Shown: positions 6,199 to 51,656 of the stretch, in pieces
Layout of the letters: every line of letters starts with the position of its first letter
Position numbering within the stretch: the first letter of the stretch is position 1
Assembly (NCBI GenBank): GCA_964448115.1
Contig: CAYUVA010000018.1
Coordinates: 1 to 64,000, forward strand
Direction of reading: 5' to 3'
DNA from: an uncultured bacterium
GTDB taxonomy: Bacteria > CAYUVA01
DNA: 64,000 nt
Made by a program: the position numbers and the translations under genes
The notes under the pieces: generated by a model
Seen by the model: only the letters and a program-made list of their open reading frames with translations
What the model was told of the DNA's origin: nothing
The model's database searches: none

Positions 6199-9100
6199 TC
6201 ATTCCCCCGCTCTGAGGTATGGCCATTGCTTGCTAAGGTTACGCACCCCGTCGTTTGCCACCAAGCCAAGCTCTATGGTCATAGGAGACAACCCGCTCTC
6301 CATCGGCACGCCCAAAGCAAATACATTATCGCCAGCTATGCCCCCGGGATCTGGATAGACGCCATTATCAAGCAACTTAACTCCGCTGGGAATGCCCTGA
6401 TAGTAAATCTCGACCTCTATCGGAGTCGAATAGATAGGCACCGGCAGCTCATATACATAAGCAACCATGGTCAGGTACCCGCCGGTGTGGTCTAGTTCTG
6501 TATCCCAGTACCCGCCCAGGTATATCTGTGGTGCAATAAGGTCGATGATCACCTCGACCTCGTTGCTCTTTTCGCTCTCCAAGCCGGCGTTGTTCAGCGC
6601 GGTTACCGAGTAATAATACCTCTTGTTTCCCACCACCGTGTTGTCGATATAATTTGAGGATTTCACCGGCCAGCCTTGATTGAGCACTATGTATCCGCCG
6701 GTCGGGGTCTCGCGTCGATATATATAGTACCCCTTGAGGTCAGGCTCTGTATTATCATCCCAATCGAGGTGTGCGCTCGGTCCCACCATCCATCCGCGCA
6801 GGTTCCTTGGTTTGGATGGCGCGTCGCTCCCGGTCGATGCGCTAACCGTATTGGAAGGCTCGCTCTCCAAGCCGAGATCATTCACCGCTGTAACGAAGTA
6901 ATTATAGAGCGTTGCCGGCTGCACATCCTCGTCCGAGTAATGCGACTGGCTCTCCAGATCAGCGATGCGAGTGAAGCCGGAGACATCGCTCTTTCTTCGA
7001 TAGACATTGTATCCAGCCAGGTTCGTCTCGCTGTTGTCCTCCCAGTCGAGTGCGATGCGGTCGCCCTGTCCCTCGGCAGTCAAGCCGCGTGGCGCAGAGG
7101 GAGGCGGACTGGTAGGAGTCGGCGTCTGCCCCGGCTGCGTGGGAGTCGGAGTTGGCTGACCAGCCAGGGCGATGTATAGGTTGTAGCTGCCCATGTCATC
7201 CGCATCGTAACCATCAACCACGATAAAGTAAGATTGCCCAGCAGCAAGAGCCAAATCTAATATCCGCTCCGGGGTGCCGCTGTCAGAGCCTGCGATGCAG
7301 GAAGCCATATTCTCGCAGTCGGTAAGCACATACAGCGAGGCATCGAAGGGATCAACCGCGGTAAGCGTGATATCAACATTCTGGTTGCTGGCTGGATTGT
7401 ATTGGTAAACCACATCAGCACCGATAGCCTTATACCCAGTGCAGCCGCCGTTGCCCGGGTCGTAGTCATTCGCTGCATAAGATGTATCGCCGCTGTGAGA
7501 GTACGGTACCTGGGGGATCAGCTTGCCGGGACAGCGCTCATTCTTAAGCTCCACTGTGAGCGCGTAGTTGCCATTATCACCTGAATCAAATCCATCGCTT
7601 ATGATGTAATAAGTGGTTCCTGCTTGCAGCAACATATTGCTTATTGTCTCTGCTCCGCCGCTTAATGCCTGGTCGCTACCCCTTAGGCAGGAGTCCATGT
7701 TCCCGCAGTCGGTTACCACATACAGAGAGGCATCGTAATCGCTCGGCTCAAGGATGATATTCACCTCCAGGTTGCGACTCGGCGTGAAGGAGTAAACAAT
7801 ATCCTTGCCATAGGCGTTATAGCCGGTGCACCCCCCACTGCCAGGATTGTAGTCGTTATGAATCTCTGGATCATTAGTATTGCCTTGTGTGCTGAAGGGG
7901 AGGGAGTTTACCTGTATTCCGGGACAAGTATCGCCTGATGGGGGCTGCCCTGGGGTCGGTGTGCGAGTGGGAGTCGATGTGGGATATGGCGTGAGGGTTG
8001 GCGTTGCCGTGGCAGTCGGGGTCGGAGGCGGAGTCGGAGAAACACCGCTGGATGCGATCAGTATCTGGAAGGAGCCTATATCCTCTGCGTCATAGCTGTC
8101 GCATACGATGTAGTATGTAGTTCCGCCGGTCAAGGGAACATTGGAGAGCACCTCCGGGTCGTTTACTGTATCGACTCCAGCGATGCAGGTTCCCATATCA
8201 TCGCAGTCGGTTACCACATATATCGCCGGGTCATAAGCCTCCTCCTGCCACAGATATACATCGATGCTCATATTGGAAGGCGGAGTATAGGAAAAGACGA
8301 TATCCCTACCTGGCTCCGAGTAGCCGGTGCAGCCGCTCGAACCTGGATTGTAGTTGTTCTCCGCATTGCTCATATTGCGCGAGCGGATGAAAGGAAGCGA
8401 ATCGACCACGGTGCCAGGGCAGATATCATCAGCCTCGTGCACATCGAAGGTGAATTCGCCACCCTCGTAAGGCTCGTAGGCATCGAAGAAGATATAGTAC
8501 CTGGTGCCGGACTGAACGGGCACATTATGAAGCATCTCCGTTCCACCGGTCGTATATTGATCCGAGCCAGCGATGCAAGTGGTTAGATCCTTGCAATCTG
8601 TGGCTATATAAAGCGAGGCATCGAAACCTGTCGGATCCATGATTACGCTGATCTTCTGATCGTAAGGGGGATCATAGTGATAGATTAGATCCTTGCCGGC
8701 TGCGGTATGCCCGGTGCAACCCCCGCCGCCCGGATTGTAGTCATCATCACCATAGATCGAGTCGTCCGCGCCGTGATAGGGGAGGCTAGGAACCTCTATG
8801 CCAGGACAGACATCCTGGTAAACATAGAAGTAGAGATTAAAGGTGCCGAAGCTGAGCGGCCAGGTGCCGTCGCATATAATATAATAGGTCGTGCCCTGAG
8901 CAAGGTGAAGATCCACGATGTATTCCGGCTCTCCGCTGGCGACTCTGTCTGCTCCAGCAACGCAACTATCCATATCGCTGCAGTCGGTTACCACATAGAT
9001 CGATGCGTCGAAGTCCGCTGGGTCCATGATCAGGATAACCCTCATGTCCTTAGGGGGGGTGAAGTTATACACGACATCTGGTCCGGTCGCGAATATGCCG

Positions 9101-9348
9101 GTGCAGCCACCAGTTCCTGGGTCATAGTCGTTTAAAGCTAAAATATTAGTGTCGGTCGTGTAGTAGGCTAAGGTCGGTATAGTGGTACCTGGACAGGTAT
9201 CGCCGCCCCCCTTGCCATTATACTGTTCAAGGGTAATAGTCTTCCCAATTGGAACCTCATCCCCAAAGCTGGGGATCGCCCACATTGCTAAACAAAAGAT
9301 GCCTAAGACTATAGCATCCAATCCTCGAATCATCCTCGACATAGCCAT
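6199..9348 (-). CDS. Large secreted/surface protein: 5 Cys-rich ~125 aa repeats, Pro/Thr linkers, 2 fibronectin type III domains, conserved C-terminal domain
   Basis: Signal peptide; five copies of CPG...[DN]Y[DN]PG.GGCTG...YVVTDC...C.AG; PT linkers; two FN3 units (LDW.DN.E.(N/D)L.GY..YRR...Y.Y.VTA.N); CTD PQIYLGGYWDT...WPYLRAGE. Confidence 0.88.
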   Translation of the reverse strand: MAMSRMIRGLDAIVLGIFCLAMWAIPSFGDEVPIGKTITLEQYNGKGGGDTCPGTTIPTLAYYTTDTNILALNDYDPGTGGCTGIFATGPDVVYNFTPPKDMRVILIMDPADFDASIYVVTDCSDMDSCVAGADRVASGEPEYIVDLHLAQGTTYYIICDGTWPLSFGTFNLYFYVYQDVCPGIEVPSLPYHGADDSIYGDDDYNPGGGGCTGHTAAGKDLIYHYDPPYDQKISVIMDPTGFDASLYIATDCKDLTTCIAGSDQYTTGGTEMLHNVPVQSGTRYYIFFDAYEPYEGGEFTFDVHEADDICPGTVVDSLPFIRSRNMSNAENNYNPGSSGCTGYSEPGRDIVFSYTPPSNMSIDVYLWQEEAYDPAIYVVTDCDDMGTCIAGVDTVNDPEVLSNVPLTGGTTYYIVCDSYDAEDIGSFQILIASSGVSPTPPPTPTATATPTLTPYPTSTPTRTPTPGQPPSGDTCPGIQVNSLPFSTQGNTNDPEIHNDYNPGSGGCTGYNAYGKDIVYSFTPSRNLEVNIILEPSDYDASLYVVTDCGNMDSCLRGSDQALSGGAETISNMLLQAGTTYYIISDGFDSGDNGNYALTVELKNERCPGKLIPQVPYSHSGDTSYAANDYDPGNGGCTGYKAIGADVVYQYNPASNQNVDITLTAVDPFDASLYVLTDCENMASCIAGSDSGTPERILDLALAAGQSYFIVVDGYDADDMGSYNLYIALAGQPTPTPTQPGQTPTPTSPPPSAPRGLTAEGQGDRIALDWEDNSETNLAGYNVYRRKSDVSGFTRIADLESQSHYSDEDVQPATLYNYFVTAVNDLGLESEPSNTVSASTGSDAPSKPRNLRGWMVGPSAHLDWDDNTEPDLKGYYIYRRETPTGGYIVLNQGWPVKSSNYIDNTVVGNKRYYYSVTALNNAGLESEKSNEVEVIIDLIAPQIYLGGYWDTELDHTGGYLTMVAYVYELPVPIYSTPIEVEIYYQGIPSGVKLLDNGVYPDPGGIAGDNVFALGVPMESGLSPMTIELGLVANDGVRNLSKQWPYLRAGE

Positions 9349-9387
9349 AACTCCTTTACAATCGATTCTCGTTTCTAATTTGCTTTA

Positions 9388-9415
9388 ATTATATTAACAT
9401 GTTTCCCGTTTTCAA
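9388..9415 (-). promoter_or_regulatory. Putative sigma70 promoter for the 1049 aa secreted protein
   Basis: Minus strand TTGAAA-N16-TATAAT; AAGGAG RBS before the ATG at 9348. Confidence 0.55.
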
Positions 9416-9466
9416 GTCCTGCTTTGAACAGCCCCATCTCGACTTGGGCACGATAAGTACAAAACC

Positions 9467-9928
9467 CTAGTATTCAAGGGCGCCGGTTGGGCAAGCGAGC
9501 ACGCACCAGGGCTGATCGTTTCTACCTTGGCACAGGTCGCACTTGATTAGCAGACCTTTATCCTGATCAACCCACAATCCCTGTTGCGGGCATACATCGA
9601 TACAAAGCCCGCAAAGGCTGCACGACTGCATATCAAGGATCACCTTTGAGTTGTCATCATTCCTGAATAAAGCGCCATCGGGGCAAACATCGATACATGG
9701 CGCATCTTCACACTGAGTGCAAAGCACAGGGTACTCACTGCGTGCAAAGGGATCGCGATGGATCCTGATGGCTGCTTTTTCCGGGCTGCAAAAGCCAAAA
9801 AGGCTAAGGCTGCAATAGATGCTGCACAGCAGGCATCCGTTGCATAGCTCGGGGTTTACCTTGACGCCCATAACATAGGATGATAGTCCCGCCAGCGCTT
9901 TTTTACAAACCTTAATTGCACTGACCAT
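9467..9928 (-). CDS. 4Fe-4S dicluster (HydN/CooF/DmsB-like) electron-transfer protein
   Basis: Four Cys clusters (CNGCLLC...C, CTQC...C...CP, CSLCGLC...CP, KCDLC...C...CP); true start probably the ATG near 9871. Confidence 0.85.
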   Translation of the reverse strand: MVSAIKVCKKALAGLSSYVMGVKVNPELCNGCLLCSIYCSLSLFGFCSPEKAAIRIHRDPFARSEYPVLCTQCEDAPCIDVCPDGALFRNDDNSKVILDMQSCSLCGLCIDVCPQQGLWVDQDKGLLIKCDLCQGRNDQPWCVLACPTGALEY

Positions 9929-9968
9929 GGTTGATAAGAGCTAAGAACTCGATTATCATTGCCCTTAT

Positions 9969-10643: not shown

Positions 10644-10648
10644 TAGGT

Positions 10649-11881: not shown

Positions 11882-11899
11882 TATGCTGCATTCTTGATG

Positions 11900-14851: not shown

Positions 14852-15106
14852 AGTGTTTTTCCCCCCCTTTGATGGCGAGTTATCTTAAAGTGATATCGTA
14901 AGCTAGCTTGTTAAGATATCCTTTTCCCATTATACAGATTTTATATACAACTTATGTGAAAACTTCAAGATGCATGACTTGAAGCATCGTTGAAAAAGAA
15001 TCCAACAGGGTGTAAAGTCGCTTACGATGTCAAGCTCGGTTAACTTGATAAGCAAGTTGCGTTCGTAAAAAAAAACATAATTGCCTTATTTGGTCAACGG
15101 GAGGTC

Positions 15107-17737: not shown

Positions 17738-19585
17738 ATGGCAAGCGAACATCTCGAATCCTTGATGGGACCGCTGGACTCAACCAGCGGATTGGAAATA
17801 ATCAGCTCGCTGTATAGATCTGGCTTCACCGGTTCCTTGTCGGTTAATACCAGCAAGATAAACGACACGATCTTCTTAAGAGCTGGCAATATCATCTATG
17901 CCACTTCAGACTCCCCCGATTATGAGATCCTTTATATACTTCTCGATAACGGCGTGATATCCGAAAGCCAGTACAAGCAGATCTACGAGCTTCAAAAGAA
18001 AGAAGGGCTACCGGCTGAGATGCTTCTGGCAGCGAAGAAAATAGTCTCCGTAAAGGATTTGCTTCCCTGGATCGAGAATAAAATTAGACGAATCTGCCTT
18101 AGTACATTTTCTGTAACCTCCGGTTTTTACTTGCTCCTGTTCAATGTTCATCCAGCCAAGGGGTCGCTCTGTTATACGATGGACACACCGACCTTGATCA
18201 TGGAGGCGGTGCACAAGTTCAAGAAAAGAGAGGATCTCAGAGCATGGTTGGGCGATGTTACCGCGGTGCCCAAGGTCACTAAAAAGTTCAGCCTAGGCTC
18301 CAGCCAGGCTTTTATGAAGCTGAGCGCTTACGATGGATTCGTCATCTCCAGGGTGGATGGTTATTCCAATCTAAGACAGATCATTTCCATGTTGGGCAGC
18401 CAAAAGACAGAGCCGTACCAGACCTTGTATGGAGCTATATTAGCCGGGATGCTGGAAGTGGATCAGGAAGCCCTTGAGTCGATGCCGCTGCATTTCGATC
18501 TTGAGACCGAGAAGCAGACTAGCCTTAAGAAGATGACCAAGGAGAACATGGAGAAAGAGAATTTCAATATCTCCTGGGATGAACTGAGCGAGGATGCGGG
18601 GGTTACCTTCGTTGTCGGCGGTGAGGAATTAACCCCGGAGGAGCTATTCAAGGGTATTTCAGACCACTATGAGGATCTCTCAAAGGGCAAAGATGAGAAG
18701 AAAAAAGACCAAGAACAGTACTTTTCAATTGAGACATTGGAGCAAAGATATGCCGAATGGCTTCGATACCAGGCGCAGAAGGAAAAGATGACTAAAATGG
18801 GCAAGACAATAACCGCCAAAGAAAGGGTACATCTTGTCCAATCGACCGAGGAAGATAAAGAAAAACAAGATCAGAAGACGATCTATACCGAACGAGCAAA
18901 ACCTGAAATAATGAAGACATACCAGCGCCTGGCAAACCAGAACTACTACGAGATGCTCGGAATTTCGATTGATGCTAGCCATGAGGAGATAAAACAGGCA
19001 TACTTCGAGAAGATAAGCATATATGACCCGGAGAACTTTTCCTTAAAAGCCCTGGGGAATCTTGTTGTCCAACTAAATGCCATAAGAGAGAAGCTCGCCG
19101 AGGCTTACCAGGTTCTCTCCGATGTCCAGCAAAAAAGGCAGTATGATGAAAAGATCCAAGAACAGCTTGACAAGGCGAGACTTGCTGCTCAGAAGAAAAA
19201 AGAGATTGCCAAGAGGAATTTCGAGGACGGCATCGCATCATACAAGGCTAAGGATATCATCCGCGCCGCCGACCTGTTTCGTACCGCCATTAGCCTTAAT
19301 CCAGAAGAATCGGAATACTACTACAACCTTGCCGCATCGCTGGCTACCAACCAGCAATGGCTGCGAGAGGCGCTGCGCAATATAAGAAAAGCGATCAAGC
19401 TCGATCCCCAGCAACCGAAGTACTATGTGGCAATGGGTGCAATAAGCGCCCGCGGAGGCATGTTCGCCTCGGCGGTGAGGGCTTATCGAAACGCAATCAA
19501 GCTCGACCCGCAGAACAAGACACTGCGCAAGCAGTTCGAAAAAATTGTGGTTCTAAGCTCATCCCAGAGCCTCACCAATGCCTGA
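17738..19585 (+). CDS. DUF4388 + DnaJ-like + TPR repeat protein
   Basis: N-terminal FTGSLSV...IFLRAGNIIYATS; NYYEMLGISIDASHEEIKQAY...EAYQVLSD...RQYD J-like domain; C-terminal TPRs (AIKLDP). Confidence 0.82.
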   Translation: MASEHLESLMGPLDSTSGLEIISSLYRSGFTGSLSVNTSKINDTIFLRAGNIIYATSDSPDYEILYILLDNGVISESQYKQIYELQKKEGLPAEMLLAAKKIVSVKDLLPWIENKIRRICLSTFSVTSGFYLLLFNVHPAKGSLCYTMDTPTLIMEAVHKFKKREDLRAWLGDVTAVPKVTKKFSLGSSQAFMKLSAYDGFVISRVDGYSNLRQIISMLGSQKTEPYQTLYGAILAGMLEVDQEALESMPLHFDLETEKQTSLKKMTKENMEKENFNISWDELSEDAGVTFVVGGEELTPEELFKGISDHYEDLSKGKDEKKKDQEQYFSIETLEQRYAEWLRYQAQKEKMTKMGKTITAKERVHLVQSTEEDKEKQDQKTIYTERAKPEIMKTYQRLANQNYYEMLGISIDASHEEIKQAYFEKISIYDPENFSLKALGNLVVQLNAIREKLAEAYQVLSDVQQKRQYDEKIQEQLDKARLAAQKKKEIAKRNFEDGIASYKAKDIIRAADLFRTAISLNPEESEYYYNLAASLATNQQWLREALRNIRKAIKLDPQQPKYYVAMGAISARGGMFASAVRAYRNAIKLDPQNKTLRKQFEKIVVLSSSQSLTNA

Positions 19586-24862: not shown

Positions 24863-27800
24863 ATGAAGCGATTCAACATAAGCATTCTACTGGTGGCGAT
24901 GGCGGCAATCCTTTGCCCTTGCGCGGTCTGGGGAGACCTGCCCGAAGGCTTCCCCAATGACCCCGAATACGACCGCTCGGAGCACGAAGATCCACCTGGC
25001 TCGCCGTTTCGTGAGCAATGGTACCTGTTCAGCTTCGAGCCACGCAAGTACCCCGGCGCCGGCGTAAGCGGTATCAGCGCCGATATCGCCTGGGAATACT
25101 GCATCGGCAGGCGGGATGTAATTATCGCGGTGCTCGACTCCGGCACCGAGTGGGGAAATCCTGACCTGGCTAACCAGTACTACCTCAACCGCGGCGAGCT
25201 TCCCGAACCGCAGAACGGCGATGGAATAAGCACACCCGGCGTCTATGACTACAACCGCGACCGCTGGTTCAACATTGAGGACTATGTCGATGACCCAAGA
25301 GTTTACGACATCAGCGAGGACGGCATCATCGACCCCCACGACCTTATCCTGCTGTTTTCCGATGGTCTCGATGACGACAGCAACGGCTTCATCGACGATA
25401 TCTGCGGTTGGGACTTCTTCGAGGGAGATAACAATGCGATGGACAACGTGAAGTCCCAGGGCTACAGCCACGGCTACACCTGCATTCGAGAGGGTGCCTC
25501 GCAGGGGAATAATGGCATCGGCAAGACCGGTCCGGCTCCGATTATAAGTGTTATGCCGCTCAGGGTAGGCGATTTCTTCATGGCAGATATCAACCGGGTG
25601 GGCATGGCTGCGCTCTATGCTGCCCAGATGCGTTCCAACGTGCTATCCTGTGCGCTGGCGACCTACAACAACTCCAGCTTCGGCGCCGAGGCGATCCGCT
25701 ATGCTTACCAGCATGGCGTTTTGACCATAGCAGGCTCTGGCGATGAGGGCGCCTTCCACCACCACTATCCAGCCATCTACGACAAGGCGGTGATGATAAG
25801 CGGCATCGTTCCCGACAACCTCCATGTAGAGGATAGCCTGCCAACTACAACCTATATAAACAACAGCAACTTCAGCAACTGGGGAGCGCACCTGCATCTC
25901 TCCGTGCCCCACACCTCGACCTCGTATTCGACAGCTCTGGCATCGGGAGCGACCGCGCTCGTCTTCGCTTACGGAAAGGACCTGGTGGATCAAGGCGAGC
26001 TTGAATATGAGCTTACCGCTGGCGAGGTCAAGCAGATACTGTGCAACAACACAGATGATATCAACGAGCCTTACGACCCGCAGCGCTATCCGAGCCATGA
26101 AGGATGGGACTTTTATCACGGCTATGGACGCCTGAACCTGGGCAAAGCGCTCGCCTCCATGGGAGCCGGCACCATACCACCCCAGGCGGATATCGAGTGG
26201 CCGGAATGGTTCTCCATCCACGACCCGGAAAAGAAGCCTATACTCGAAATAGGTGGTTTCGTGTCTGCAAGGCGCGCCGAGTACTTCGAGTATAGCCTTG
26301 AGTACGGCATAGGCAGAGATCCCCTGTACTTCAAGGAATTTTATCATTCGGGTCCGATACAGGGCGAACTCAGGGGGACACTGGCGAGCCTCGATATAAC
26401 ATCGATCATCTTCATGTATCATCTCCCCCCGGAGACTCCCTTTGATCACATGGTTACCATCAGGCTCAAGGTGATCGATAACCTGGGCAACTATGCCGAG
26501 GACAAAAGGGCGATGTTCATCAGCCACGATGCTGATCTCAAGGCGAATTGTCCGATATACATCGGCGCATCAGGCGAATCATCCCCCAAGCTGGCTGATC
26601 TGAACAACGATGGCGCGCTGGAAATCGTATTCGGAACCGCTGATGGAAAGGTGTGCGTGATAAGGGGCGATGGCTCGGCTCAGACCGGCTGGCCGGTAAG
26701 CATGACCCCCTGCGATGCCTTCAACGGTTGGCTCGACCCCTCTGGTACCGCTGATTGGATCGCCTCGTTTAGCCCTGAGCTGCCCGTAAGCGGAGCATCC
26801 ATCATCGGCGCGCCGGCGGTCGGCGACATAAACCAGGACCGGCAGTTGGAGATCGTGATCGCCAACTCCGCGGGCAAGGTCTATGTATTCGACCCGGTTG
26901 GAAATGTATTGGCTGGGTTCCCGGTCTCGATGGATCCTGAGTTTTCCGACCCTTCGCTGCGCAGCCAGGAGTACATGGTGGAGATGGCTTTTTACTCATC
27001 GCCGGCGCTTGCTGACCTGGATGGCGACGAGTACTTGGAGATAATCATTTCCGGCGGGGATCAGAGGCTGTATGTCTGGCGCTATGATGGCAGTTCACTG
27101 GCGGGCTTCCCGGTGAGGCTCTACGATGCCTCCGAGGAAAATCCACAGGGGAGGAGGATCTTTTCATCTCCCGCGGTCGGCGATATCGATGGCGATGGCG
27201 TGCCTGAGATCGTGGTCGGCAGCCAGGAGGTCTATGGCACCAGTTGTCGGCTATATGCGGTCAGAGCCGATGGTAGCTTTATGCCCGGCTGGCCGGTCAA
27301 GCCGTTTGCATTGTATGCGGACATCGTCCCTGTAATTGGCACCGGCATCTCAAGTTCGCCGCTGCTTCTGGATATAGACCAAGATGGCACGCTCAAGATA
27401 GCGGCATCGGTGGTGATTGGAACTCCGACCATCTACAACTACGATGGGAGCATCTGGCGGGACATGAACCTTGCGCCGTTCGGTGCTTATTCGGACACTG
27501 ATGACACCCCGAGCATGGTGGTTATGTCCAATCACAGCGCCGGCGACCTGGACCTGGATGGAAAGCTGGAGTTTATAAGCGGCGGCACCGGCTTGCGATA
27601 TGCTTTATCCATGGCTTTCCAGGGAATCAGGGTAACCAACATCCACAACATCTCGGCTTGGGATACGGAGACTAATCGCTTCATGCCATGTTTCCCGCGC
27701 GCGCTGGAGGACGCCCAGTTCTTCGTCTCCCCGGCGGTTGCCGATATCGACCGCGATGGTTACCCGGAGATAATCCCCGGCACTGGCGGATACATCAGCC

Positions 27801-28417
27801 ACGCCTTCAATCATCGGGGTATTGAGCCAGCCGGATGGCCTAAGCTAAACGGCGGCTGGCTCTTTGCCAGCCCGGCTATCGGCGATGTCGATGGCGACAA
27901 GCTGCTCGAGGTGGTAGTCATAACCCGCGAGGGATACCTGTTTATCTGGGACACGAGGGGGACTATGGGACCGACGCATCGCCCCTCGGTGCACTTCCAG
28001 GAGTTCAGGGGCAACAACTACAACAACGGCGTGGTGAGCGTCCTGACTCCGACACCGACCCCGCAGCGCACCCCGCCATACACCTACACCCCCACCCCAT
28101 ACCCGGGCAACATTCCACAAGTGATGGTCGCCGGCTACATGGATACCTATATCTCAAGTGCATCAGGGGGAAAGTTCACCCTGTGGGCTTACACCGGCGA
28201 GGTTCCGCTGCATCTTAATCCGACCCTACATGTATTGTATCAAGGCACGGTGATAACTAACCTGCCGCTGATCGATGCGGTCAATGGCGTATTTGCCATG
28301 GGGGAAATGTCCGTATCGCCGGGCATCCCCCTTGGGTGCATACAGCTTTTGCTAAGATACACCGATGACAGGGAGCTTTCGAGTTTTTCCTGGCCATATT
28401 TACCAGTTACCAATTAA
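24863..28417 (+). CDS. Secreted S8 (subtilisin-like) peptidase with FG-GAP/VCBS repeats, Pro/Thr linker and conserved C-terminal domain
   Basis: Signal peptide; IAVLDSG (Asp), SHG (His), STSYSTALASG (Ser); DDDSNGFIDDICGWDF; repeated SSPA(L/V)xD(I/L)DGDG..EI; CTD PQVMVAGYMDT...WPYLPVTN. Confidence 0.88.
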   Translation: MKRFNISILLVAMAAILCPCAVWGDLPEGFPNDPEYDRSEHEDPPGSPFREQWYLFSFEPRKYPGAGVSGISADIAWEYCIGRRDVIIAVLDSGTEWGNPDLANQYYLNRGELPEPQNGDGISTPGVYDYNRDRWFNIEDYVDDPRVYDISEDGIIDPHDLILLFSDGLDDDSNGFIDDICGWDFFEGDNNAMDNVKSQGYSHGYTCIREGASQGNNGIGKTGPAPIISVMPLRVGDFFMADINRVGMAALYAAQMRSNVLSCALATYNNSSFGAEAIRYAYQHGVLTIAGSGDEGAFHHHYPAIYDKAVMISGIVPDNLHVEDSLPTTTYINNSNFSNWGAHLHLSVPHTSTSYSTALASGATALVFAYGKDLVDQGELEYELTAGEVKQILCNNTDDINEPYDPQRYPSHEGWDFYHGYGRLNLGKALASMGAGTIPPQADIEWPEWFSIHDPEKKPILEIGGFVSARRAEYFEYSLEYGIGRDPLYFKEFYHSGPIQGELRGTLASLDITSIIFMYHLPPETPFDHMVTIRLKVIDNLGNYAEDKRAMFISHDADLKANCPIYIGASGESSPKLADLNNDGALEIVFGTADGKVCVIRGDGSAQTGWPVSMTPCDAFNGWLDPSGTADWIASFSPELPVSGASIIGAPAVGDINQDRQLEIVIANSAGKVYVFDPVGNVLAGFPVSMDPEFSDPSLRSQEYMVEMAFYSSPALADLDGDEYLEIIISGGDQRLYVWRYDGSSLAGFPVRLYDASEENPQGRRIFSSPAVGDIDGDGVPEIVVGSQEVYGTSCRLYAVRADGSFMPGWPVKPFALYADIVPVIGTGISSSPLLLDIDQDGTLKIAASVVIGTPTIYNYDGSIWRDMNLAPFGAYSDTDDTPSMVVMSNHSAGDLDLDGKLEFISGGTGLRYALSMAFQGIRVTNIHNISAWDTETNRFMPCFPRALEDAQFFVSPAVADIDRDGYPEIIPGTGGYISHAFNHRGIEPAGWPKLNGGWLFASPAIGDVDGDKLLEVVVITREGYLFIWDTRGTMGPTHRPSVHFQEFRGNNYNNGVVSVLTPTPTPQRTPPYTYTPTPYPGNIPQVMVAGYMDTYISSASGGKFTLWAYTGEVPLHLNPTLHVLYQGTVITNLPLIDAVNGVFAMGEMSVSPGIPLGCIQLLLRYTDDRELSSFSWPYLPVTN

Positions 28418-28457: not shown

Positions 28458-29366
28458 ATGGAAACAGGCTTACTCTTCGAGCAGATAGAGCAGAACAAGC
28501 GCAAGACCTGGATTCTGATCATCGGTTTCAGCCTTTTTATCACTGGATTAGGTCTGCTGTTCGGGTATAACTTCGGCAGCCCGGAAGCCGGCATCATCAT
28601 CGCATTGGTCATCGCCGTGGTCTATATCCTCATCGCCTACAAAGGGGCTAATACATGGGTATTATCGATAAGCAGGGCACAGCAGGCGGATCGCAAGGAA
28701 CATCGGATGCTGTATAACCTGGTCGAGGGGCTTTGCTTGGCTGGCGGGTTATACATGCCTAAGATATATGTAATCCAAGACGATGCACCTAATGCCTTTG
28801 CTACCGGGATGGATGAGAAAAACGGCGCGGTCATAGTAACCACGGGGCTTTTAGGGAAACTGAACAAGGAGGAGCTTGAGGGCGTTCTCGCCCACGAGCT
28901 TTCCCATATCAACAACCGCGACTCCCAGCTTATGGTGATCACTATCGCCCTGGTCGGAGTTGTTGCCCTGCTGAGCGATCTTATGCTAAGGAGCATGTTC
29001 TTCGGCAGCTCAAGGAGAAGGGCACCAGTAAAAGGTGGAGGACAACTCGGTGTTATCCTGGTGGTAGTTGGGCTGCTGTTGGCTGTTCTCGGTCCCATAG
29101 CTGCACAACTGATACGGCTTGCAATCTCAAGAAACCGCGAGTTTTTAGCCGATGCCTACGCTGTGAAGCTGACCCGCAATCCGGAGGGACTGATCAGGGC
29201 GCTCAAGAAGCTGACCATGGACAAGGAGCCACTCAAGGTCGCCAACAAGGCAACCGCACACCTGTATATTATCAACCCACTGATCGAGCATCGCGGTAAG
29301 CTGAACTCGCTGTTCAACACGCATCCATCCATAGACGACCGCATAGCAGCCCTCAAGAAGATGTAG
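28458..29366 (+). CDS. htpX: Membrane zinc metalloprotease HtpX (M48)
   Basis: PNAFATG, VLAHELSHI, ISRNREFLADA, THPSIDDRI. Confidence 0.93.
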   Translation: METGLLFEQIEQNKRKTWILIIGFSLFITGLGLLFGYNFGSPEAGIIIALVIAVVYILIAYKGANTWVLSISRAQQADRKEHRMLYNLVEGLCLAGGLYMPKIYVIQDDAPNAFATGMDEKNGAVIVTTGLLGKLNKEELEGVLAHELSHINNRDSQLMVITIALVGVVALLSDLMLRSMFFGSSRRRAPVKGGGQLGVILVVVGLLLAVLGPIAAQLIRLAISRNREFLADAYAVKLTRNPEGLIRALKKLTMDKEPLKVANKATAHLYIINPLIEHRGKLNSLFNTHPSIDDRIAALKKM

Positions 29367-30101: not shown

Positions 30102-30758
30102 TTGCAGGCTATGATTGGTTGCAGGTTACAAGTGGCTATTGTTTTTGCAATAACCTTTGTATTGCATCAAAATCTGGCTGCATCTGCTGAGAAGGTGCTA
30201 TTAGACCGAACCATAGCAGCCTATTCTGATCGAGTCATAACCCTAAGCGAGCTATTGGAGACCCAGGAGATATTCTTCCCCCAAAAGGAGATCTGTGAAT
30301 TCAACTTGGATGATGGCAACTTCCATGAGGTGTTGGACTTGATGGTCGGTCAGCGTTTAGCTCTAAAATTCCTTGAGAAGCTGCCCCATGAGGTGATCAG
30401 TCAAGAAAAGCTGGACACAAGAATCAACAACCTTATAGTCAAACACGGCTCAAGGGATGCTTTGGAGCAAGCGCTTCTTAAATGGGGACGGGACTGGGAT
30501 TACTTGGTCAAGCGGCTGGTAGATGAATGGAGGCTGTTCAATTACCTGAGGCATCGCCTTGGCAAAGATTTGAGCATCTCTGAAGAGCAGGTGCAAAGGC
30601 GTTACCAGGAGCTACGCAGTGAACTGGGAGAAGTAGCACTTACGGCGAAGGTCTCGGAGAAGATACGGCAGGTGATCATCGAGGAACAGATAAATGAAAG
30701 GCTGGAGAGCTGGATCGAAAAGCTGAAGGAGGTCTATGAGCTGAAGATCCTGCTTTAG
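30102..30758 (+). CDS. SurA N-terminal-like periplasmic chaperone
   Basis: Signal peptide; LLDRTIAAY..RVITLSEL; ISEEQV..RY; WIEKLK...LKIL. Confidence 0.6.
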   Translation: MQAMIGCRLQVAIVFAITFVLHQNLAASAEKVLLDRTIAAYSDRVITLSELLETQEIFFPQKEICEFNLDDGNFHEVLDLMVGQRLALKFLEKLPHEVISQEKLDTRINNLIVKHGSRDALEQALLKWGRDWDYLVKRLVDEWRLFNYLRHRLGKDLSISEEQVQRRYQELRSELGEVALTAKVSEKIRQVIIEEQINERLESWIEKLKEVYELKILL

Positions 30759-31291
30759 CCAGAAGATCTAAAAAAGCTGACACGCAGGGTTAAATCCAGT
30801 TGGTCTTGATTATCGAAGCGCCTGTGGATGCGAATGCTGGAAAGGCTAATGGGTTGGTTGAGGCTCTCGATGCTGTAAAGGTACAAAAGAAGCTCATGCA
30901 TGCTTAGCCTTTGCAACCTGACCTCTACGGTTATGACGGTTGCGCCGCGCTCGCTGCGTGTATCCAAAGGTTTCAGGGATACCAGCTTGGAGCGAATGCC
31001 ATTTGCCTCAGCGTTGCGCTCCAGGAATGTTAAAAGAGAAAAGTTGCTTGATTGAGCTTGCTTGCTAGAGGAATGGACTGCATTATTTGCTCGAAGCAGT
31101 TCCAACTGGGCAGCTAATTGCTTGAGTTGTTCCATCTGCCTTTGTCGCGAGGCGATCTTGGCTTGCATCTCCCGGCTCTTTTGGGCTAGCGGATGTATCA
31201 CCAAGCTATAGTACAAGGCGAGCAGTATCACTGCTGTACCCACATAAACAAAACGCCTTTCCCTGCTTCTTAGCTTCATTAGCCTATCCAT
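30755..31291 (-). CDS. Type II secretion system protein GspM-like
   Basis: RSRERRFV + single TM + coiled coil + ferredoxin-like C-terminus (LLLYLYSIE); overlaps the GspL-like gene. Confidence 0.75.
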   Translation of the reverse strand: MDRLMKLRSRERRFVYVGTAVILLALYYSLVIHPLAQKSREMQAKIASRQRQMEQLKQLAAQLELLRANNAVHSSSKQAQSSNFSLLTFLERNAEANGIRSKLVSLKPLDTRSERGATVITVEVRLQRLSMHELLLYLYSIESLNQPISLSSIRIHRRFDNQDQLDLTLRVSFFRSSG

Positions 31292-32723
31292 TGGTTTCCA
31301 GCTTCAGTCTAAAGGTTATGTTCCCCTCTTTTGCGCTGACATCAGCCTTTTCTATGGAGACAGACTCGATATGAGCACTGGTTTGAAGAGCTTTTTTTAT
31401 TGCCTCAAGGTTTTCAAAGGAATCGATATATCCCTCGATAAAGGTATCGTTTCCCTCGATGCGTAGATCCACCACCTCTAATGGGATCTGCTCATCGATG
31501 ACAGATGATATAATATGCATGAGCTGTAATGGAGATAAGCTGCTTTCAGAGCCATAACCTATCTGGTTTCGCTTAAGCTCCCTTACTGCCTGGCGCATTT
31601 GTTCCACCTCGTTTACGACGCGAGTTGTATTGGGCATCTTTTCCTTGAACAGTAAAAGCATCTGGTTCTTCACCTGCTCATAACGCCTCTGTTGATGCCT
31701 CAAGGAGATGTAGGAATCCGCCACCGGCAAAAGCAATAAGCCGGCGAGAAAGACCGCCGCTGCTCGCATTATAAATTGCATCTGGTACCCACCGAGGGCT
31801 GAGGAGCCTGTAATAAAAAGGTCGGCAGGCATCGATTGCAGCGGAATGGAGGCTAATGACGCAACTGAAATCGCTTGATATACACTCGATAGCTTGGCAC
31901 CATTGAGCTTGACCTTTACCGCGCTATGCAGATCATCAATGCTTGAAGCGGGCAAGCCGAGCGCTTCTTTCAGCCTGTAGTTCAGGGACGAATCGCTCGG
32001 GATGTTCGTATATATCTCCTTGACCTGTTCTCTCCGATCTCTGGATAAGGATTTACAGAAAATCCTTACATGATTAAGCAAGATATCCTCGGTCGCATCG
32101 GTGTCCCCATCGGGTATCAGGAATGTCCTATATGCAAATAATTCCTTAGCAGAGGCAGCCAGCAGGCTGACCGAACCATTGTTTGTATCCACAAAGAGCC
32201 TTGCCGAATCGGGGTCGTCCCATTGTACCAGCCGATTGAACTGCTGCATAGCAATCGCCTGCGGGGTAGCGGATGCGATTACAGCCCCTTTGGCGATCGC
32301 TGCTTGAGATAGCTGATCCATAATTCCAGCCGCTGCAGCGAAGGCTAATACGCTCGATCCCTTGCTGCAAAATGCCTTATCGGTATAAGAGATGGCAAGA
32401 TCCTCCAATGTAGCTGGCAGCATAGCCTCCAGCTTGAAGGGGATCGCCTTTGCCAGGTTGCGAGCAGGTATGTCTCCCACCTCAAGGATGCGGTTATAAA
32501 GGTAAGTGCCTGGAATGATGAGCCTGTATCGCCCCTTGGCTGACAGGTTCCTAGCGATCTGGGTTATTAGCTCCTTAAGATCTCCAGGCTTCTGTTTTCC
32601 AGGAATCTCGATGGTTCTCGATGCGGTAATGCTGATAGAGCCTATCGAGCGATGAATGCGTATGAGCTTCAGTTTGCTGGTTCCCGGATGGATAACATCA
32701 AAGGTCTCAAATAAGAAGGACAA
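31284..32723 (-). CDS. Type II secretion GspL / PilM-PilN-like protein
   Basis: Actin-like cytoplasmic region (IPFKLEAMLP..LEDL), single TM near aa 320-335, VVNEVEQMR, periplasmic IEGYIDSFENLEAIKKAL. Confidence 0.7.
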   Translation of the reverse strand: MSFLFETFDVIHPGTSKLKLIRIHRSIGSISITASRTIEIPGKQKPGDLKELITQIARNLSAKGRYRLIIPGTYLYNRILEVGDIPARNLAKAIPFKLEAMLPATLEDLAISYTDKAFCSKGSSVLAFAAAAGIMDQLSQAAIAKGAVIASATPQAIAMQQFNRLVQWDDPDSARLFVDTNNGSVSLLAASAKELFAYRTFLIPDGDTDATEDILLNHVRIFCKSLSRDRREQVKEIYTNIPSDSSLNYRLKEALGLPASSIDDLHSAVKVKLNGAKLSSVYQAISVASLASIPLQSMPADLFITGSSALGGYQMQFIMRAAAVFLAGLLLLPVADSYISLRHQQRRYEQVKNQMLLLFKEKMPNTTRVVNEVEQMRQAVRELKRNQIGYGSESSLSPLQLMHIISSVIDEQIPLEVVDLRIEGNDTFIEGYIDSFENLEAIKKALQTSAHIESVSIEKADVSAKEGNITFRLKLETNG

Positions 32724-34941: not shown

Positions 34942-36252
34942 TTACGGATCGACCTTCAACATCGGCAGGTAGATTACCGGGTTGTCGCAAAGATCCCATC
35001 CAGCCAGCAAGAAAAGGGAATCGCTCCTCAGTAGCTCAGCCTCTATGCTATCTACCAGGGTGAGTACCATATCGCTTTTGGTTGCATCGCCATCTTGCCC
35101 ATAGTCGTTCAGTGTGCTCTCCAGGACTGTCATCTCGCCATCCGAGGCTATAAAAGCTATGTATAGGCGCTTGAGGTGCTTATCATCGGTAATGGCTACC
35201 ACGCTGAAGGTTGCTTTACCATTCATGGTGATATTTGTGTCCCAGAATCCAGCAGCCAATATTCGTGGGGAAGTGTAATCGACTACAATGGTATCGCTGA
35301 CCGCAACGCTGGTATTCCCTGCCCTGTCCACTGCCTGAACGCGCACTTCGAGCGTTCCCTGGGGGGCTCCCTGCCAGTATGAGTAGGGTTTGCTTGTCTT
35401 ACCCGGATTTAAACGCGGGTGGCTGGGATACTCCTTGCCATCAGCGAAATAGCTAAGCATATAATTATCGATTCCTGGCTGTTCTCTGCAATAGCCGGCA
35501 TCGAGAAAGCCGCGCCAGGTGATTAGCAGGTTCGTCGAGTTCGAGTAATAAGCCCCGCCATCGATAACAACCTCGGCATGGCTTCCGGGATAGGGTGGCA
35601 ATGTGTCGATACAAAGGGATGCTCTTGCCGTATCTGATATATTGCCAGCGCAATCCTGGGCTTTTATCTCGATGGTGTGTTCGCCATCAGCCAGCGGATA
35701 AAGCATAAGGCATGGATGGTCAGCGAATCCGCTCGCCTGCCCATCAACGGTGAAGTAATAGCCCCATACTCCAGAAGGAGAATCGCCAATGGAATCCTGG
35801 AAGCCCTCGGCACAGACCAGAGCTTTGTTCTGATTGCGATATCCATTTAATGCATCGGCGATAGTAACCGCTCCGACAAGCGGTGCATAAAGGTCTAATG
35901 CTATCGAAGCCCCCGCCTGTGCCCAGGAGCCATCGTCTCCCTTTACCTTGCAATATAACTGTCGAGCGCCCTCCTGCAATGGATCGCTGAAGGTATAGAG
36001 ATATTCGCTTCCTGTGTAAGTGTATTCCTTGTAGCTGCCCTGGGGATCCTCGCCCAGATAGAATATTGTGGCATTGCCATCGGCGATGCTCAGGTGCACA
36101 GCGACGGTGGCGCTGTTGCTGTATAGTCGTACCTGTTCAGCAGACTGGTTGGGTACTGGATCATGGTCGTAAAGACAGAACTCGTCAATAGCAATCGACC
36201 AGGCAGGGGATGCCAGAACCGCAAGCAATAATGTACAAACGAGGATTTTCAT
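34942..36252 (-). CDS. Secreted protein with Ig-like beta-sandwich repeats and conserved C-terminal domain
   Basis: Signal peptide; repeated DGEHTIEIKAQDCAGN / EVRVQAVDRAGN and D..PP junctions; CTD PRILAAGFWDT...LPMLKVDP. Confidence 0.8.
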   Translation of the reverse strand: MKILVCTLLLAVLASPAWSIAIDEFCLYDHDPVPNQSAEQVRLYSNSATVAVHLSIADGNATIFYLGEDPQGSYKEYTYTGSEYLYTFSDPLQEGARQLYCKVKGDDGSWAQAGASIALDLYAPLVGAVTIADALNGYRNQNKALVCAEGFQDSIGDSPSGVWGYYFTVDGQASGFADHPCLMLYPLADGEHTIEIKAQDCAGNISDTARASLCIDTLPPYPGSHAEVVIDGGAYYSNSTNLLITWRGFLDAGYCREQPGIDNYMLSYFADGKEYPSHPRLNPGKTSKPYSYWQGAPQGTLEVRVQAVDRAGNTSVAVSDTIVVDYTSPRILAAGFWDTNITMNGKATFSVVAITDDKHLKRLYIAFIASDGEMTVLESTLNDYGQDGDATKSDMVLTLVDSIEAELLRSDSLFLLAGWDLCDNPVIYLPMLKVDP

Positions 36253-42984: not shown

Positions 42985-43205
42985 TCGCTTGTTGTTAATG
43001 AGCCGGTCTTTCGATGGTTCCCCCGGTTGTTATCGGGGGTTCGAGCCTGTATCGCCGTTTCTTGATCAGGTGCAGTTTCAACAGCCTTACGCGCTGTTCT
43101 ACCATTTATAACAACCTCAACCAAGACTTTAATCCCATGTCATTATCAAAGACCATAAATTACTTTCGTATAAATTGACGAATATTCAGACAATAATAAT
43201 AGATC

Positions 43206-45836: not shown

Positions 45837-45901
45837 TAAAGCCATTGGCGGCTGACTGTTTCTTTGCATTGAATGCGCCATAGAGTAAAATAAAAGGAAT
45901 A

Positions 45902-48550: not shown

Positions 48551-48803
48551 TCGGCATGGGATTGGGGAGTTTGTCTCAAAATGTCCAAGAAGTTCCATAC
48601 CCCGTCATTCCGAGAAGGTAATGACAAGAAGTAGCGCTAGGTGCCTCAAGCATTTGACTTGAAGATCATGATTGATGAAGCTTTTAGGGGGTGATTTGGG
48701 GAATAACCGTTTTTAAGAAAAGGGCTTCCCCCAAGAAAAGTAAATTCAAACTGAAGATCTGGGATCTTGACGCAGAAGTGCATTACTGCGATCATAAAAC
48801 TTA

Positions 48804-50348
48804 ATGAGAACAAAATTGAGCGTTAATCTATTGACCATATTGCTGGCTTTTCTACTTTTTAGTCCATACCATCTTGAAGCAGAGGTACGCCCCAAGTACG
48901 GCGATGCACTAAAAGCGCCATACCTTAAGAAACCATACTTTCCCACCTACCTGGAGCTTACCAGGGTCGCCTGCCAGTTCTCCACCCTGTTTGAGCTTGA
49001 TGAATACGGTAATCCCAAGCCTTGTCTCGTTGAATCATACAACATAAGCGAAGATGGCTTGGAGCTTAGCATTATGCTACGCGAAAAACTCACCTTCCAT
49101 GACCATCGAGAGTTAAACGCTGAAGCGGCTGCGGCTTCCTTGCAACATCTAGCTGATATGCAATGGTGCTATGCCAGGCTGCTTGAGCCTATAAAAGGTT
49201 ACAGGCAGTATATGGATGGCGAAACGGAAGCGATCGAGGGGATCATACCCTCTTCAGAACATCATCTAAGGATCATCCTGGAGGGAAGGTGTAACAACAT
49301 GCTTACCAGGCTTGCTTTTCCAGGATTAGCAATTATGCCTGCGAGTGCAAATTCTAAAACGAGTTACCCATACTCCCCCAGGATCCCCGGCAGCGGAGCT
49401 TTTTATGTAAAGAAGATCAATGATGACGATCAGATAGTCCTCGAGCCGAATCTTGATTATTTCAAGGGGCGTCCTTACTTGAACAATTTATCATTTATCC
49501 CCTCCAACGCTCCTGGGGCAAGCGCAATAGCTATTAAAAACAAGCAGTTAGACCTCGGTTTGATATATGAGCCTACCAATATGAGCCTACTGCCCACTGA
49601 TGCAAAGAAAACCCATGTAAACATACCCTACTCTGTTTTTATACATCTGAACGCAGCCAGATCCCCGTTCGATAATAAAAAGATGCGAAAGGCATTCCTA
49701 TGGCTGATAGATCCTGAGAATACCGTGAAGATCGCCCTTGGTGGAAAAGCGCAATATGCTACCACCATATTGCCACCGAGCATCGCCCTTTACCATGACT
49801 TGATCCGAATCCCTAAGCCAAATGCCCGGGTATCTCAAGCCGCATTGGGAACTATTACAGGTAGATCGCTCACAATGATTATACCAGCCAATGATCCCAT
49901 TGCGGATCGCATCTCGCAGAGACTAAAAACCAGCATGAGGAAGCTGCGACTAAACTTGTCCATAGAGAAACTAGGCTATGCGGACCTGTACTACAGGTAC
50001 AAGACAAAAGAGTATGATCTGGCTTATGTCTCCTTTGAGCCGCATTTCTCAGACCCGCAGCTAGCCTTGGAGGAATTCCTACTTTTATACCATGATCTTA
50101 AGCCAATCGCCTTTACAAGCGACAAGTACTCTGAGATAAAATATTACCTCCTGTTGGCTCAGCGAGCAGAATCTCCAAGTGATGGAGTTCGATTTGTCAT
50201 AAAAGCTGAGCAATTGCTCGCTGAAAAAGTGCTGGATATCTATCTATTTTACAGCAATGCCCAGCTTGGAGCATCAAGTAAGCTACAGGGATTGAGATTT
50301 ATGCCCTGGGGAGTATCCCTTCAGGATGCGTGGATCAGCAGGCATTGA
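48804..50348 (+). CDS. ABC transporter substrate-binding protein (OppA/DppA family 5)
   Basis: Signal peptide; LREKLTFHD, GSGAF, YFKGRPYLN, PFDNKKMRKA. Confidence 0.8.
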   Translation: MRTKLSVNLLTILLAFLLFSPYHLEAEVRPKYGDALKAPYLKKPYFPTYLELTRVACQFSTLFELDEYGNPKPCLVESYNISEDGLELSIMLREKLTFHDHRELNAEAAAASLQHLADMQWCYARLLEPIKGYRQYMDGETEAIEGIIPSSEHHLRIILEGRCNNMLTRLAFPGLAIMPASANSKTSYPYSPRIPGSGAFYVKKINDDDQIVLEPNLDYFKGRPYLNNLSFIPSNAPGASAIAIKNKQLDLGLIYEPTNMSLLPTDAKKTHVNIPYSVFIHLNAARSPFDNKKMRKAFLWLIDPENTVKIALGGKAQYATTILPPSIALYHDLIRIPKPNARVSQAALGTITGRSLTMIIPANDPIADRISQRLKTSMRKLRLNLSIEKLGYADLYYRYKTKEYDLAYVSFEPHFSDPQLALEEFLLLYHDLKPIAFTSDKYSEIKYYLLLAQRAESPSDGVRFVIKAEQLLAEKVLDIYLFYSNAQLGASSKLQGLRFMPWGVSLQDAWISRH

Positions 50349-50378
50349 GATTGAACCTATGGATATCGCCTTTTCCCA

Positions 50379-51656
50379 TCATTCATCTACGGTCAGGGCA
50401 GGCCAGGAGCCTATCTCCTTACTAAGGATATTGAACAGGACAAAATCTAGCCGGATAGCAATCACTGGCATTCCCGATGGAAGATCAGTTCGATAGCCGT
50501 AGAATTTATCTCCCGCGCCGAAGTCCCCGTATCTGCCATTATCATACATGATAAGCCCTGTATCCATCCCCTGGTGATATATCCGTACAGTGAAGACATT
50601 GGGATCGGTTATATATGCGAGCATCTGAAGCATTCCTCCCTGCTCGCTGCTTAACCTCGTGTCCCAGTAACCACCAAGTAACACATCTGCGACCATCGGT
50701 GTTGTGGTCGGAGTTGCCGAGGGTGTTGTAGTGAAGGTTGCAGTCGGTGTTCGGGTTGGAGTCTCGGTAGGGGTCCAGGTGCTGGTTGGAGTAGTAGTAG
50801 GCGAGGCGGTTGAGGTTGCGGTTGGTGTAGTTGTAGGAGTGGTGGTCGGGAGCATAGTCGGGGTGTAAGTACCGAAGCCGATAGCGAGCCAGTTGCTGTA
50901 TTCGCTCTCGTTATCTCCCTTATCATAAGCCGAAACTACAAACAGGGTAAGGGTTTGTTGGTTGAGATCGATCCATCCTTTGCGGGCGGTTGGATCGCTG
51001 ATTTCGAGCATGTTCGGATAATAGCCCTGCTCGGGACCCCAATATAATCTGAAACCTGCCAAGTCCGACTCGAATGACTTTTCCCAGGTAAGCTCTATGT
51101 TCAGGTCCCCTATATCATCAGCAGCTAAAAGTTCAGGCGTATAAGGTGGCATTGCGAGCAGTTGATCGATCTTGTTGCGCATGGCGGTCAAGCCCTGCTG
51201 GTAGCCGCGTTGAGTCATCGCTATCACCATATCGCGACCGATAATGGTATTATGCGGAATCCCTCGCACATCGTAATCGTTTGCAGTAGCGCCGCTAGGA
51301 TCCGATAGCACCGGGTGGGTAAGACCATATTGATCCCGCCAGGCTCTAATATCCTCGATGTTCTCTTGTATTCCTATGGATGCGACCATTACTCCCTGAG
51401 CGCGATATTCTTCCCATAATTCCTGGAGTTCGGGAGCCTCCCGACGACAGTATGTACACCAGCTCTGCCAGAAGTTAAGAGCGATGATGTAGCCTGTGTA
51501 GTCGCTCAGGGTGAACAAGGTATTATTGCAATCGTATAGACTGAAGTCTGGAGCGTATTGCTCCGGCATAGCCCGGATATCGGAAAACATTGATGAAAAG
51601 AACAAGGCTACCAGGATGCTTATGGTTACATCCGAGTTGATCCTAATTTGTTTCAT
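50379..51656 (-). CDS. Secreted TlpA/ResA-like redoxin + FN3 + Thr/Pro linker + conserved C-terminal domain
   Basis: APDFSL, LNFWQSWCTYC (CxxC), RGIPH; LTWEKSFESDLAGFRLYWG; PT tract; CTD DVLLGGYWDT...WPALTVDE. Confidence 0.87.
   Translation of the reverse strand: MKQIRINSDVTISILVALFFSSMFSDIRAMPEQYAPDFSLYDCNNTLFTLSDYTGYIIALNFWQSWCTYCRREAPELQELWEEYRAQGVMVASIGIQENIEDIRAWRDQYGLTHPVLSDPSGATANDYDVRGIPHNTIIGRDMVIAMTQRGYQQGLTAMRNKIDQLLAMPPYTPELLAADDIGDLNIELTWEKSFESDLAGFRLYWGPEQGYYPNMLEISDPTARKGWIDLNQQTLTLFVVSAYDKGDNESEYSNWLAIGFGTYTPTMLPTTTPTTTPTATSTASPTTTPTSTWTPTETPTRTPTATFTTTPSATPTTTPMVADVLLGGYWDTRLSSEQGGMLQMLAYITDPNVFTVRIYHQGMDTGLIMYDNGRYGDFGAGDKFYGYRTDLPSGMPVIAIRLDFVLFNILSKEIGSWPALTVDE

Follow-up and report, generated by a model that had tools for sequence, protein, structure and literature searches.

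The closest described relative of the domain treated here is choice-of-anchor X, which NCBIfam curates as NF041940, a 37-position model with a cutoff of 25 bits. Our literature search returned no paper that mentions choice-of-anchor X, NF041940 or choice_anch_X. For the similarly named choice-of-anchor A, the preprint that uses the term applies it to surface proteins that are anchored by any of several C-terminal signals and in which the domain is not itself the anchor (bioRxiv 10.1101/2023.03.06.531300). By its name, the X class would mark surface proteins that use other anchors. Here we analyze a stretch of 64,000 nucleotides from an uncultured bacterium (positions 1 to 64,000 of contig CAYUVA010000018.1, assembly GCA_964448115.1; the window), in which four unlinked genes encode signal-peptide proteins, P0001 to P0004, whose translations show unrelated cargo and the same type of C-terminal domain, CTD1 to CTD4. 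An earlier reading of the window, made from the sequence alone, had proposed the domain as new, strictly C-terminal and a lineage-specific export or surface-attachment signal. We conclude from sequence comparison that it is a real, homologous and lineage-restricted C-terminal module for which a targeting function is plausible. Its novelty and its certainty both fall short of what the sequence-only reading proposed, and the finding is a good lead for annotation and for a partner search.

Four homologous C-terminal domains

The window holds 744 open reading frames (ORFs) in six frames, and each of the four ORFs named by the sequence-only reading is the longest frame at its place. CTD1 covers residues 940-1049 of P0001 (6202..6531, minus strand, with its stop codon at 6199-6201), CTD2 residues 1085-1184 of P0002 (28115..28414, plus strand), CTD3 residues 329-436 of P0003 (34945..35268, minus strand) and CTD4 residues 323-425 of P0004 (50382..50690, minus strand). 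Their lengths are 100-110 residues, and a stop codon follows each directly. Compared pairwise among the window ORFs, CTD1 matches CTD4 at E ~2e-12 and CTD2 matches both at E 1e-4 to 2e-2, while CTD3, the most divergent copy, reaches no significance pairwise and E 0.005 with a leave-one-out profile. The stronger evidence comes from a family profile of 254 domain copies, all of them from non-window proteins; these copies were initially gathered with a window-based profile, and P0012, a window protein under another start, was excluded. On the window ORFs this profile gave best-domain E-values of 2.1e-26 for CTD4, 9.1e-23 for CTD1, 4.4e-14 for CTD2 and 2.8e-10 for CTD3, with the next ORF at E 0.96. 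All four copies match it over its full length, from profile positions 1-3 to 105-107, with the first- and last-strand motifs covered. Since a profile without any window sequence scores all four, the four C-termini are confirmed by sequence as one homologous domain, as the sequence-only reading had claimed. No fifth copy was found in profile searches of all 744 ORFs.

The start and end motifs and the coordinates quoted by that reading are all present in the translations, and its finer description is accurate as well. An xP-x-L end motif begins 8 residues ahead of the stop in all four copies, GG..AY and [YH]QG motifs are present in three, and an acidic loop is present in three, including CTD1, and deleted in CTD2, the domain of the S8 protease. 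Pro/Thr linkers stand ahead of CTD2 and CTD4. At each chain end, polar or acidic residues come right after a beta-strand, and the inspected translations of the four window proteins show no terminal hydrophobic helix and no basic tail.

The claim of unrelated cargo is likewise supported, both by these proteins and by their relatives described below. According to translations and family scans (Pfam for P0002), P0001 (1049 aa; 6199..9348, minus strand) consists of a signal peptide, six Cys-containing repeats, two FN3-like domains and the C-terminal module, and P0002 (1184 aa; 24863..28417, plus strand) of a signal peptide, an S8 subtilase, an FG-GAP/VCBS propeller region, a Pro/Thr-rich linker read directly at about residues 1062-1084 (approximately 28046..28114, plus strand) and the module. 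In P0003 (436 aa; 34942..36252, minus strand) a signal peptide and a Big_13/OmpL47-type Ig-like region precede the module. P0004 (425 aa; 50379..51656, minus strand) combines a signal peptide, an AhpC/TSA-redoxin domain (ResA/TlpA-like), an FN3-like region and a long Pro/Thr-rich linker, read directly at about residues 264-322 (approximately 50691..50867, minus strand), with the module. Judged by eye, all four N-termini open with a short charged segment that leads into a hydrophobic one, and they are likely Sec-type signal peptides, spanning about residues 1-29 in P0001 (approximately 9262..9348, minus strand), 1-24 in P0002 (approximately 24863..24934, plus strand), 1-19 in P0003 (approximately 36196..36252, minus strand) and 1-29 in P0004 (approximately 51570..51656, minus strand).

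The cargo of P0001 (6532-9261) has a structure of its own: six repeats of ~135-150 residues, each with conserved Cys pairs, fall into two groups of three with Pro/Thr linkers between the groups. These repeats match choice-of-anchor R (NF041539) weakly and below threshold (24.1 bits vs a cutoff of 30), and two relatives from outside the window, P0017 and P0030, have C-terminal ends that resemble them, P0017 with a weak PPC hit.

Relatives and the choice-of-anchor X motif

Searching 1.84 billion representative proteins with a profile of the four copies, we found 581 family representatives with E<=1e-3, of which 264 reach E<=1e-10 and 34 reach E<=1e-30. The family numbers at least 581 protein clusters. 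The relatives described here are the best 150 of the 581 matches, 147 of them non-window; four of the 147 match only the central loop region, repeatedly, and the remaining 143 were analyzed. The last copy lies within 5 residues of the chain end in 117 of these 143 (the domain is a tandem pair in 99, a single copy in 17 and a set of four hits in 1). In the other 26 the pair is internal, with 18-387 residues beyond it that include PKD, choice-of-anchor D or other domains. Thus, the position is strictly C-terminal, as the sequence-only reading had it, in all four window copies and in most relatives, but not throughout the family. Between the copies of a pair lie 36 residues in the median (range 20-76, 110 pairs), and a Pro/Thr/Ser-rich linker precedes the first copy in 31 of 128 relatives. 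First and last copies do not form distinct subtypes, and single and window copies score alike on both profiles.

The co-occurrence with signal peptides, which the sequence-only reading had put forward as a check, was seen in a crude test: a signal-like hydrophobic N-terminal stretch is present in 79 of 94 complete-looking C-terminal-type relatives (Met start, >60 residues before the first copy), and several of the other 15 resemble truncated gene calls. The end motif is also found away from chain ends, in internal first copies (82 of 93 in relaxed form, 44 of 93 exactly) and in the copies of internal pairs (47 of 49, relaxed). Because internal copies have it too, the free C-terminus is not the conserved feature, and to judge from these sequences the conserved end motif belongs to the fold and not to the terminus.

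Twelve of the internal-pair relatives (P0006, P0019, P0023, P0024, P0025, P0034, P0043, P0088, P0101, P0106, P0117 and P0139) continue after the pair with PKD repeats and then a different shared terminal domain. This domain of ~95 residues mostly ends in a hydrophobic residue plus Pro and has no family-profile match; it may be a second lineage-specific end module.

The relatives carry diverse cargo, including peptidases (S8, C25 with propeptide, M6 and M10-like), BNR/sialidase-like and F510_1955 glycosylhydrolase-like proteins, right-handed beta-helices, PQQ-type and FG-GAP propellers, lamin-tail domains, a prenyltransferase-like toroid, CarboxypepD_reg and a 3-keto-disaccharide hydrolase, and 17 of 50 relatives have no Pfam family at E<=1e-7. 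In some small relatives of 185-218 residues, a single copy is preceded by hardly more than a signal peptide and a short helix-like stretch.

All three members with an organism label (MBN1550039.1, MBN1356861.1 and MBN2054397.1) are proteins from metagenome-assembled genomes (MAGs) of candidate division CSSED10-310. This phylum has been placed as sister to Acidobacteriota and Gram-negative cells have been predicted for it, in a genome announcement whose text does not mention the domain (PMC8248873). A search of a genome collection gave one true locus, L001, the CSSED10-310 contig that encodes MBN1550039.1, with copies at E 1.3e-33 and 1.8e-26. On L001, a BNR/sialidase-like gene with a tandem pair looks split (3323-3754 and 3806-5347, plus strand), the upstream ORF bearing the signal peptide and N-terminal part and the deposited protein (513 aa) having no signal peptide. 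Another candidate, L002 from a Chloroflexota MAG, was rejected as a chance 12-residue match (family profile E 0.12).

Mapping NF041940 onto the family, we found that it covers the central 37 residues, about a third of the domain, which comprise the acidic Asp/Gly loop of the type D-x-G-x-x-G-D-x-x-A-G-D and the next strand. At least 41 of 62 C-terminal-type relatives pass its cutoff (26.2-53.3 bits, counting rows at E<=1e-5), as do 14 of the 26 internal-pair relatives. Among the window copies, CTD4, the best match both to the family and to this loop, scores 17.4 bits and CTD1 11.4 bits, below the cutoff, and CTD2 and CTD3 have no match. Choice-of-anchor X units also occur as 6-8 internal repeats in the large surface proteins P0087, P0105 and P0152, and the loop-only multi-repeat relatives match just profile positions ~50-99. 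No recognised anchor model was found on P0001-P0004, and the relatives gave one such hit, a sub-threshold MYXO-CTERM match in P0087 (16.8 bits vs 20). Since the loop passes NF041940 in typical relatives and the window copies fall below its cutoff, the family overlaps this model and the window copies are divergent. Sequence thus assigns the domain to a distinct, longer subfamily built around the curated choice-of-anchor X motif, with the window copies as divergent members. The sequence-only reading had correctly likened the acidic loop to choice-of-anchor X, and its proposal of a new domain stands in part: the full domain with its first- and last-strand signatures is uncurated, but the 37 core residues are those already curated as NF041940.

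Other curated families gave no match, in agreement with the sequence-only reading, which had recognised none of the known sorting or anchoring domains. Pfam has no match on the isolated window domains at E<=10, and this includes SLH, Dockerin_1 and the CBM families as well as PPC (PF04151) and PKD (PF18911, PF00801), the PKD domains of relatives lying outside the module. Models of the C-terminal domain of T9SS (type IX secretion; TIGR04183, TIGR04131, Por_Secre_tail) have none at E<=1 on whole proteins or at E<=10 on isolated domains, and those of PEP-CTERM, LPXTG, MYXO-CTERM and GlyGly-CTERM have none on whole proteins and none on the isolated domains at E<=10.

Predicted fold and readings of function

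The model of CTD1 (28-row alignment) is an all-beta, seven-strand sandwich, with a predicted local distance difference test (pLDDT) score of 87.6 and a predicted TM-score (pTM) of 0.80. A model of the tandem pair of P0009 (55-row alignment) reached pLDDT 90.3 and pTM 0.85 and has a helix in the linker; the high pTM suggests that the two copies pack in a fixed arrangement. Searching the PDB by structure with Foldseek, we obtained generic FN3, Ig and CBM21 matches to the CTD1 model (best E 0.037, TM-scores <=0.48) and none at E<=0.001. The tandem model best matches tandemly arrayed Ig domains, among them the BIg pairs of SiiE, a calcium-binding adhesin (E 7e-6), where a TM-score of only ~0.25 indicates that the arrangement of the pair differs. 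The structural matches listed for the single and pair models include no T9SS C-terminal domain, and a sequence-profile search of the PDB gave 0 matches at E<=10. Atlas look-alikes, which serve as leads only, are unnamed clusters (0.92) and the bacterial Ig families Big_13, Big_7 and DUF4625 (<=0.81). Prediction of a homodimer of a single window domain gave no support for a dimer, a result that weighs neither for nor against pairing. Thus, the models describe the domain as a seven-strand Ig-like beta-sandwich without a close solved structure.

A short helix with a conserved Trp lies ahead of the second copy of pairs (residues 138-149 in P0009) and also ahead of the single copy in the small proteins P0103, P0110, P0123 and P0148. 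The four window copies have no such helix; what directly precedes them is an FN3-like or Ig-like domain or a Pro/Thr linker.

For function we tentatively favour, at somewhat short of even confidence, a lineage-restricted, non-catalytic, calcium-stabilised extracellular attachment module with one common partner. P0001-P0004 would be exported by Sec, and their last 100-110 residues would fold into the seven-strand sandwich and attach to a single shared partner outside the cell, for example a glycan of the cell surface, the matrix or another envelope component. Binding would keep cargo as varied as proteases, glycoside hydrolase-like proteins, a redoxin and Ig-like binders at one site, in the manner of SLH domains, dockerins and CBMs on flexible Pro/Thr linkers and unlike a cleaved export signal, and the tandem pair, with its helix-containing linker of ~36 residues, is predicted to form one compact unit. 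The analysis establishes the homology of the copies, their fold class, the bias towards C-termini, the tandem arrangement, the variety of cargo and the choice-of-anchor X core; calcium binding, the common ligand and retention at the cell surface are what we infer from the loop pattern and the architecture. Mostly terminal, placed on linkers, often doubled and joined to many cargoes, the domain behaves as SLH domains, dockerins, CBMs and other binding modules do. The internal end motif, the 26 internal pairs among 143 relatives and the duplicated compact pair argue against a signal read at a free C-terminus. An attachment module accounts for the data no worse than an export or sorting signal. 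The sequence-only reading had named both: surface attachment fits, while export or sorting would have to be supposed, with no machinery for it in the window.

Several points weigh against an attachment module. The calcium reading rests on the appearance of the loop, which CTD2 does not have at all, and the ligand, the partner and the calcium site are all hypothetical. The window copies score 36-88 bits against the family profile vs 99-149 bits for typical members, and they are single, not paired. The relatives described are the top 150 among 581 family matches. Moreover, 100 of 112 terminal copies have the start of the last-strand xP motif at 7 or 8 residues from the chain end, and the cargo set (gingipain-like C25, M6, S8, lamin tail, BNR) resembles that of T9SS C-terminal domains in other phyla. 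The tightly fixed chain end and the T9SS-like cargo would fit a sorting signal read at the terminus as well.

Such a true sorting signal, in which a putative dedicated system would read the folded domain, bring the cargo through the outer membrane or onto it and possibly take the domain off, in analogy to T9SS C-terminal domains, is in our estimate unlikely. Further points for it are that 117 of 143 relatives end with the domain, that Peptidase_C25 with its propeptide (3 proteins) stands beside other families typical of T9SS on otherwise unrelated cargo, and that small proteins of little more than signal peptide and domain exist, in a lineage predicted to be Gram-negative (PMC8248873), whose exported proteins need a route past the outer membrane. 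However, no T9SS, PEP-CTERM, LPXTG, MYXO-CTERM or GlyGly-CTERM model matches even the isolated domains at E<=10, and neither the window nor L001 has candidate machinery. The pair is internal in 26 of 143 relatives, the end motif is equally conserved in internal copies, and tandem duplication is foreign to known sorting domains. More specifically, the WPYL-ended sandwich, single or paired, might be the signal recognised by an outer-membrane secretion and surface-attachment system specific to CSSED10-310 and its relatives; having arisen from an Ig domain of the choice-of-anchor X type, it would then serve as the T9SS C-terminal domain does. We regard this version as quite unlikely.

Another reading, also improbable in our view, makes the domain an appendage with no shared targeting role, one that is passive and structural, aids folding or binds substrate, much as do the PPC, PKD, FN3 or CBM domains frequently seen at the C-termini of enzymes that bacteria secrete; its terminal position would then come from domain shuffling in one lineage. 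The generic Ig, FN3 and CBM-like fold and the bacterial Ig families among its atlas neighbours (leads only, <=0.81) would suit an appendage, yet of a spacer one would expect neither the extreme terminal position seen in 82% of proteins nor a tandem pair fixed in a defined packing (pTM 0.85) nor a place on small proteins without cargo. PKD, choice-of-anchor D, FN3 and Big domains do occur in free combination with the domain, choice-of-anchor X units form the 6-8 internal repeats of P0087, P0105 and P0152, and the choice-of-anchor A name implies a domain that is not itself the anchor (bioRxiv 10.1101/2023.03.06.531300); its cargo, which ranges from redoxin and proteases to propellers and a prenyltransferase-like toroid, is nevertheless too varied for one substrate. 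Finally, a chance likeness of compositionally similar, non-homologous C-termini, which might be suspected from CTD3 (not significant pairwise, E 0.005 at most with the leave-one-out profile), is refuted to near certainty by the non-window family profile, with E <=2.8e-10 for all four copies and no other window ORF below E 0.9, and by a co-linear alignment with first- and last-strand motifs in common.

Neighbouring genes, implications and comparison with known systems

No translocon, sortase, scaffold or T9SS genes were found in the 64-kb window, where the search for machinery turned up nothing specific: a MacB-type permease, an HtpX protease and GspL/GspM-like genes below threshold. The last are two adjacent genes at 30755-32723 (minus strand) with sub-threshold matches to GspM (40.4 bits vs 60) and GspL (43.1 bits vs 65) of the type II secretion system; by sequence they could be part of a system for type II secretion or of one resembling type IV pili, and the window holds none of its remaining parts. 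The HtpX-type M48 zinc protease gene (28458-29366, plus strand; PRK04897, 354.8 bits vs a cutoff of 355) starts 41 bases past the P0002 stop. Elsewhere in the window, a gene at 463-2580 (plus strand) encodes DUF4388 and long pentapeptide-repeat arrays in one protein, and another at 17738-19585 (plus strand) encodes DUF4388, a DnaJ domain and TPR repeats. A 212-aa protein with an MXAN_5187 C-terminal domain (40.3 bits vs a cutoff of 30) is encoded at 55888-56526 (minus strand), with glycosyltransferase and radical SAM genes nearby.

If the module is a true tether or sorter, it marks the surface and secreted proteome, including proteases and glycan-degrading enzymes, of a phylum known only from metagenomes, and one profile would suffice to list that proteome. 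It would also help to track down its partner, be that a ligand, a scaffold or a secretion system; the PEP-CTERM/exosortase system and the T9SS C-terminal domains were initially tied to their machinery by such a route. If it is merely a structural Ig domain, the gain is one of annotation, in that the 37-residue choice-of-anchor X model is extended to a domain of ~105 residues with a predicted fold.

Compared with known systems, the window proteins lack the motif, transmembrane helix and basic tail of PEP-CTERM- and LPXTG-type signals. Like the type A C-terminal domain of T9SS, the module is an Ig-like beta-sandwich (~80-100 residues in T9SS) at the extreme C-terminus of signal-peptide cargo, and the cargo families overlap (C25, M6, S8, lamin tail). 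However, that architecture is common to many unrelated domains and is insufficient alone for T9SS membership, and in contrast to T9SS domains the module has no sequence match, is usually tandem and is sometimes internal. The reported position of CSSED10-310 as sister to Acidobacteriota also places it outside the group in which T9SS is known.

With SLH domains, dockerins and CBMs the module shares its use as one module on varied secreted cargo, often after Pro/Thr linkers, and its mostly terminal yet position-tolerant and often duplicated occurrence, and its loop is of the calcium type found in dockerins. Unlike SLH domains and dockerins, it is modeled as an all-beta sandwich and not as helical, and it matches neither family. 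PPC, PKD and bacterial Ig domains (Big_7, Big_13, SiiE BIg) are, like it, beta-sandwich appendages on secreted enzymes; ahead of its last strand the module has the D..GN.S pattern that is typical of bacterial Ig-like domains, and Big_7 gives a weak hit inside the domain of one relative (P0017). In contrast to the beads-on-a-string Ig arrays, the predicted pair is compact with a helical linker, and TM-scores do not exceed 0.48 for the single domain and are ~0.25 for the pair. The nearest relative is choice-of-anchor X, which has the same acidic Asp/Gly loop and following strand and likewise occurs in exported surface-type proteins. The NF041940 model does not include the tandem pair, the extreme C-terminal position or the two strand signatures that are this family's own, GYWDT-like in the first strand and WPYL-like in the last.

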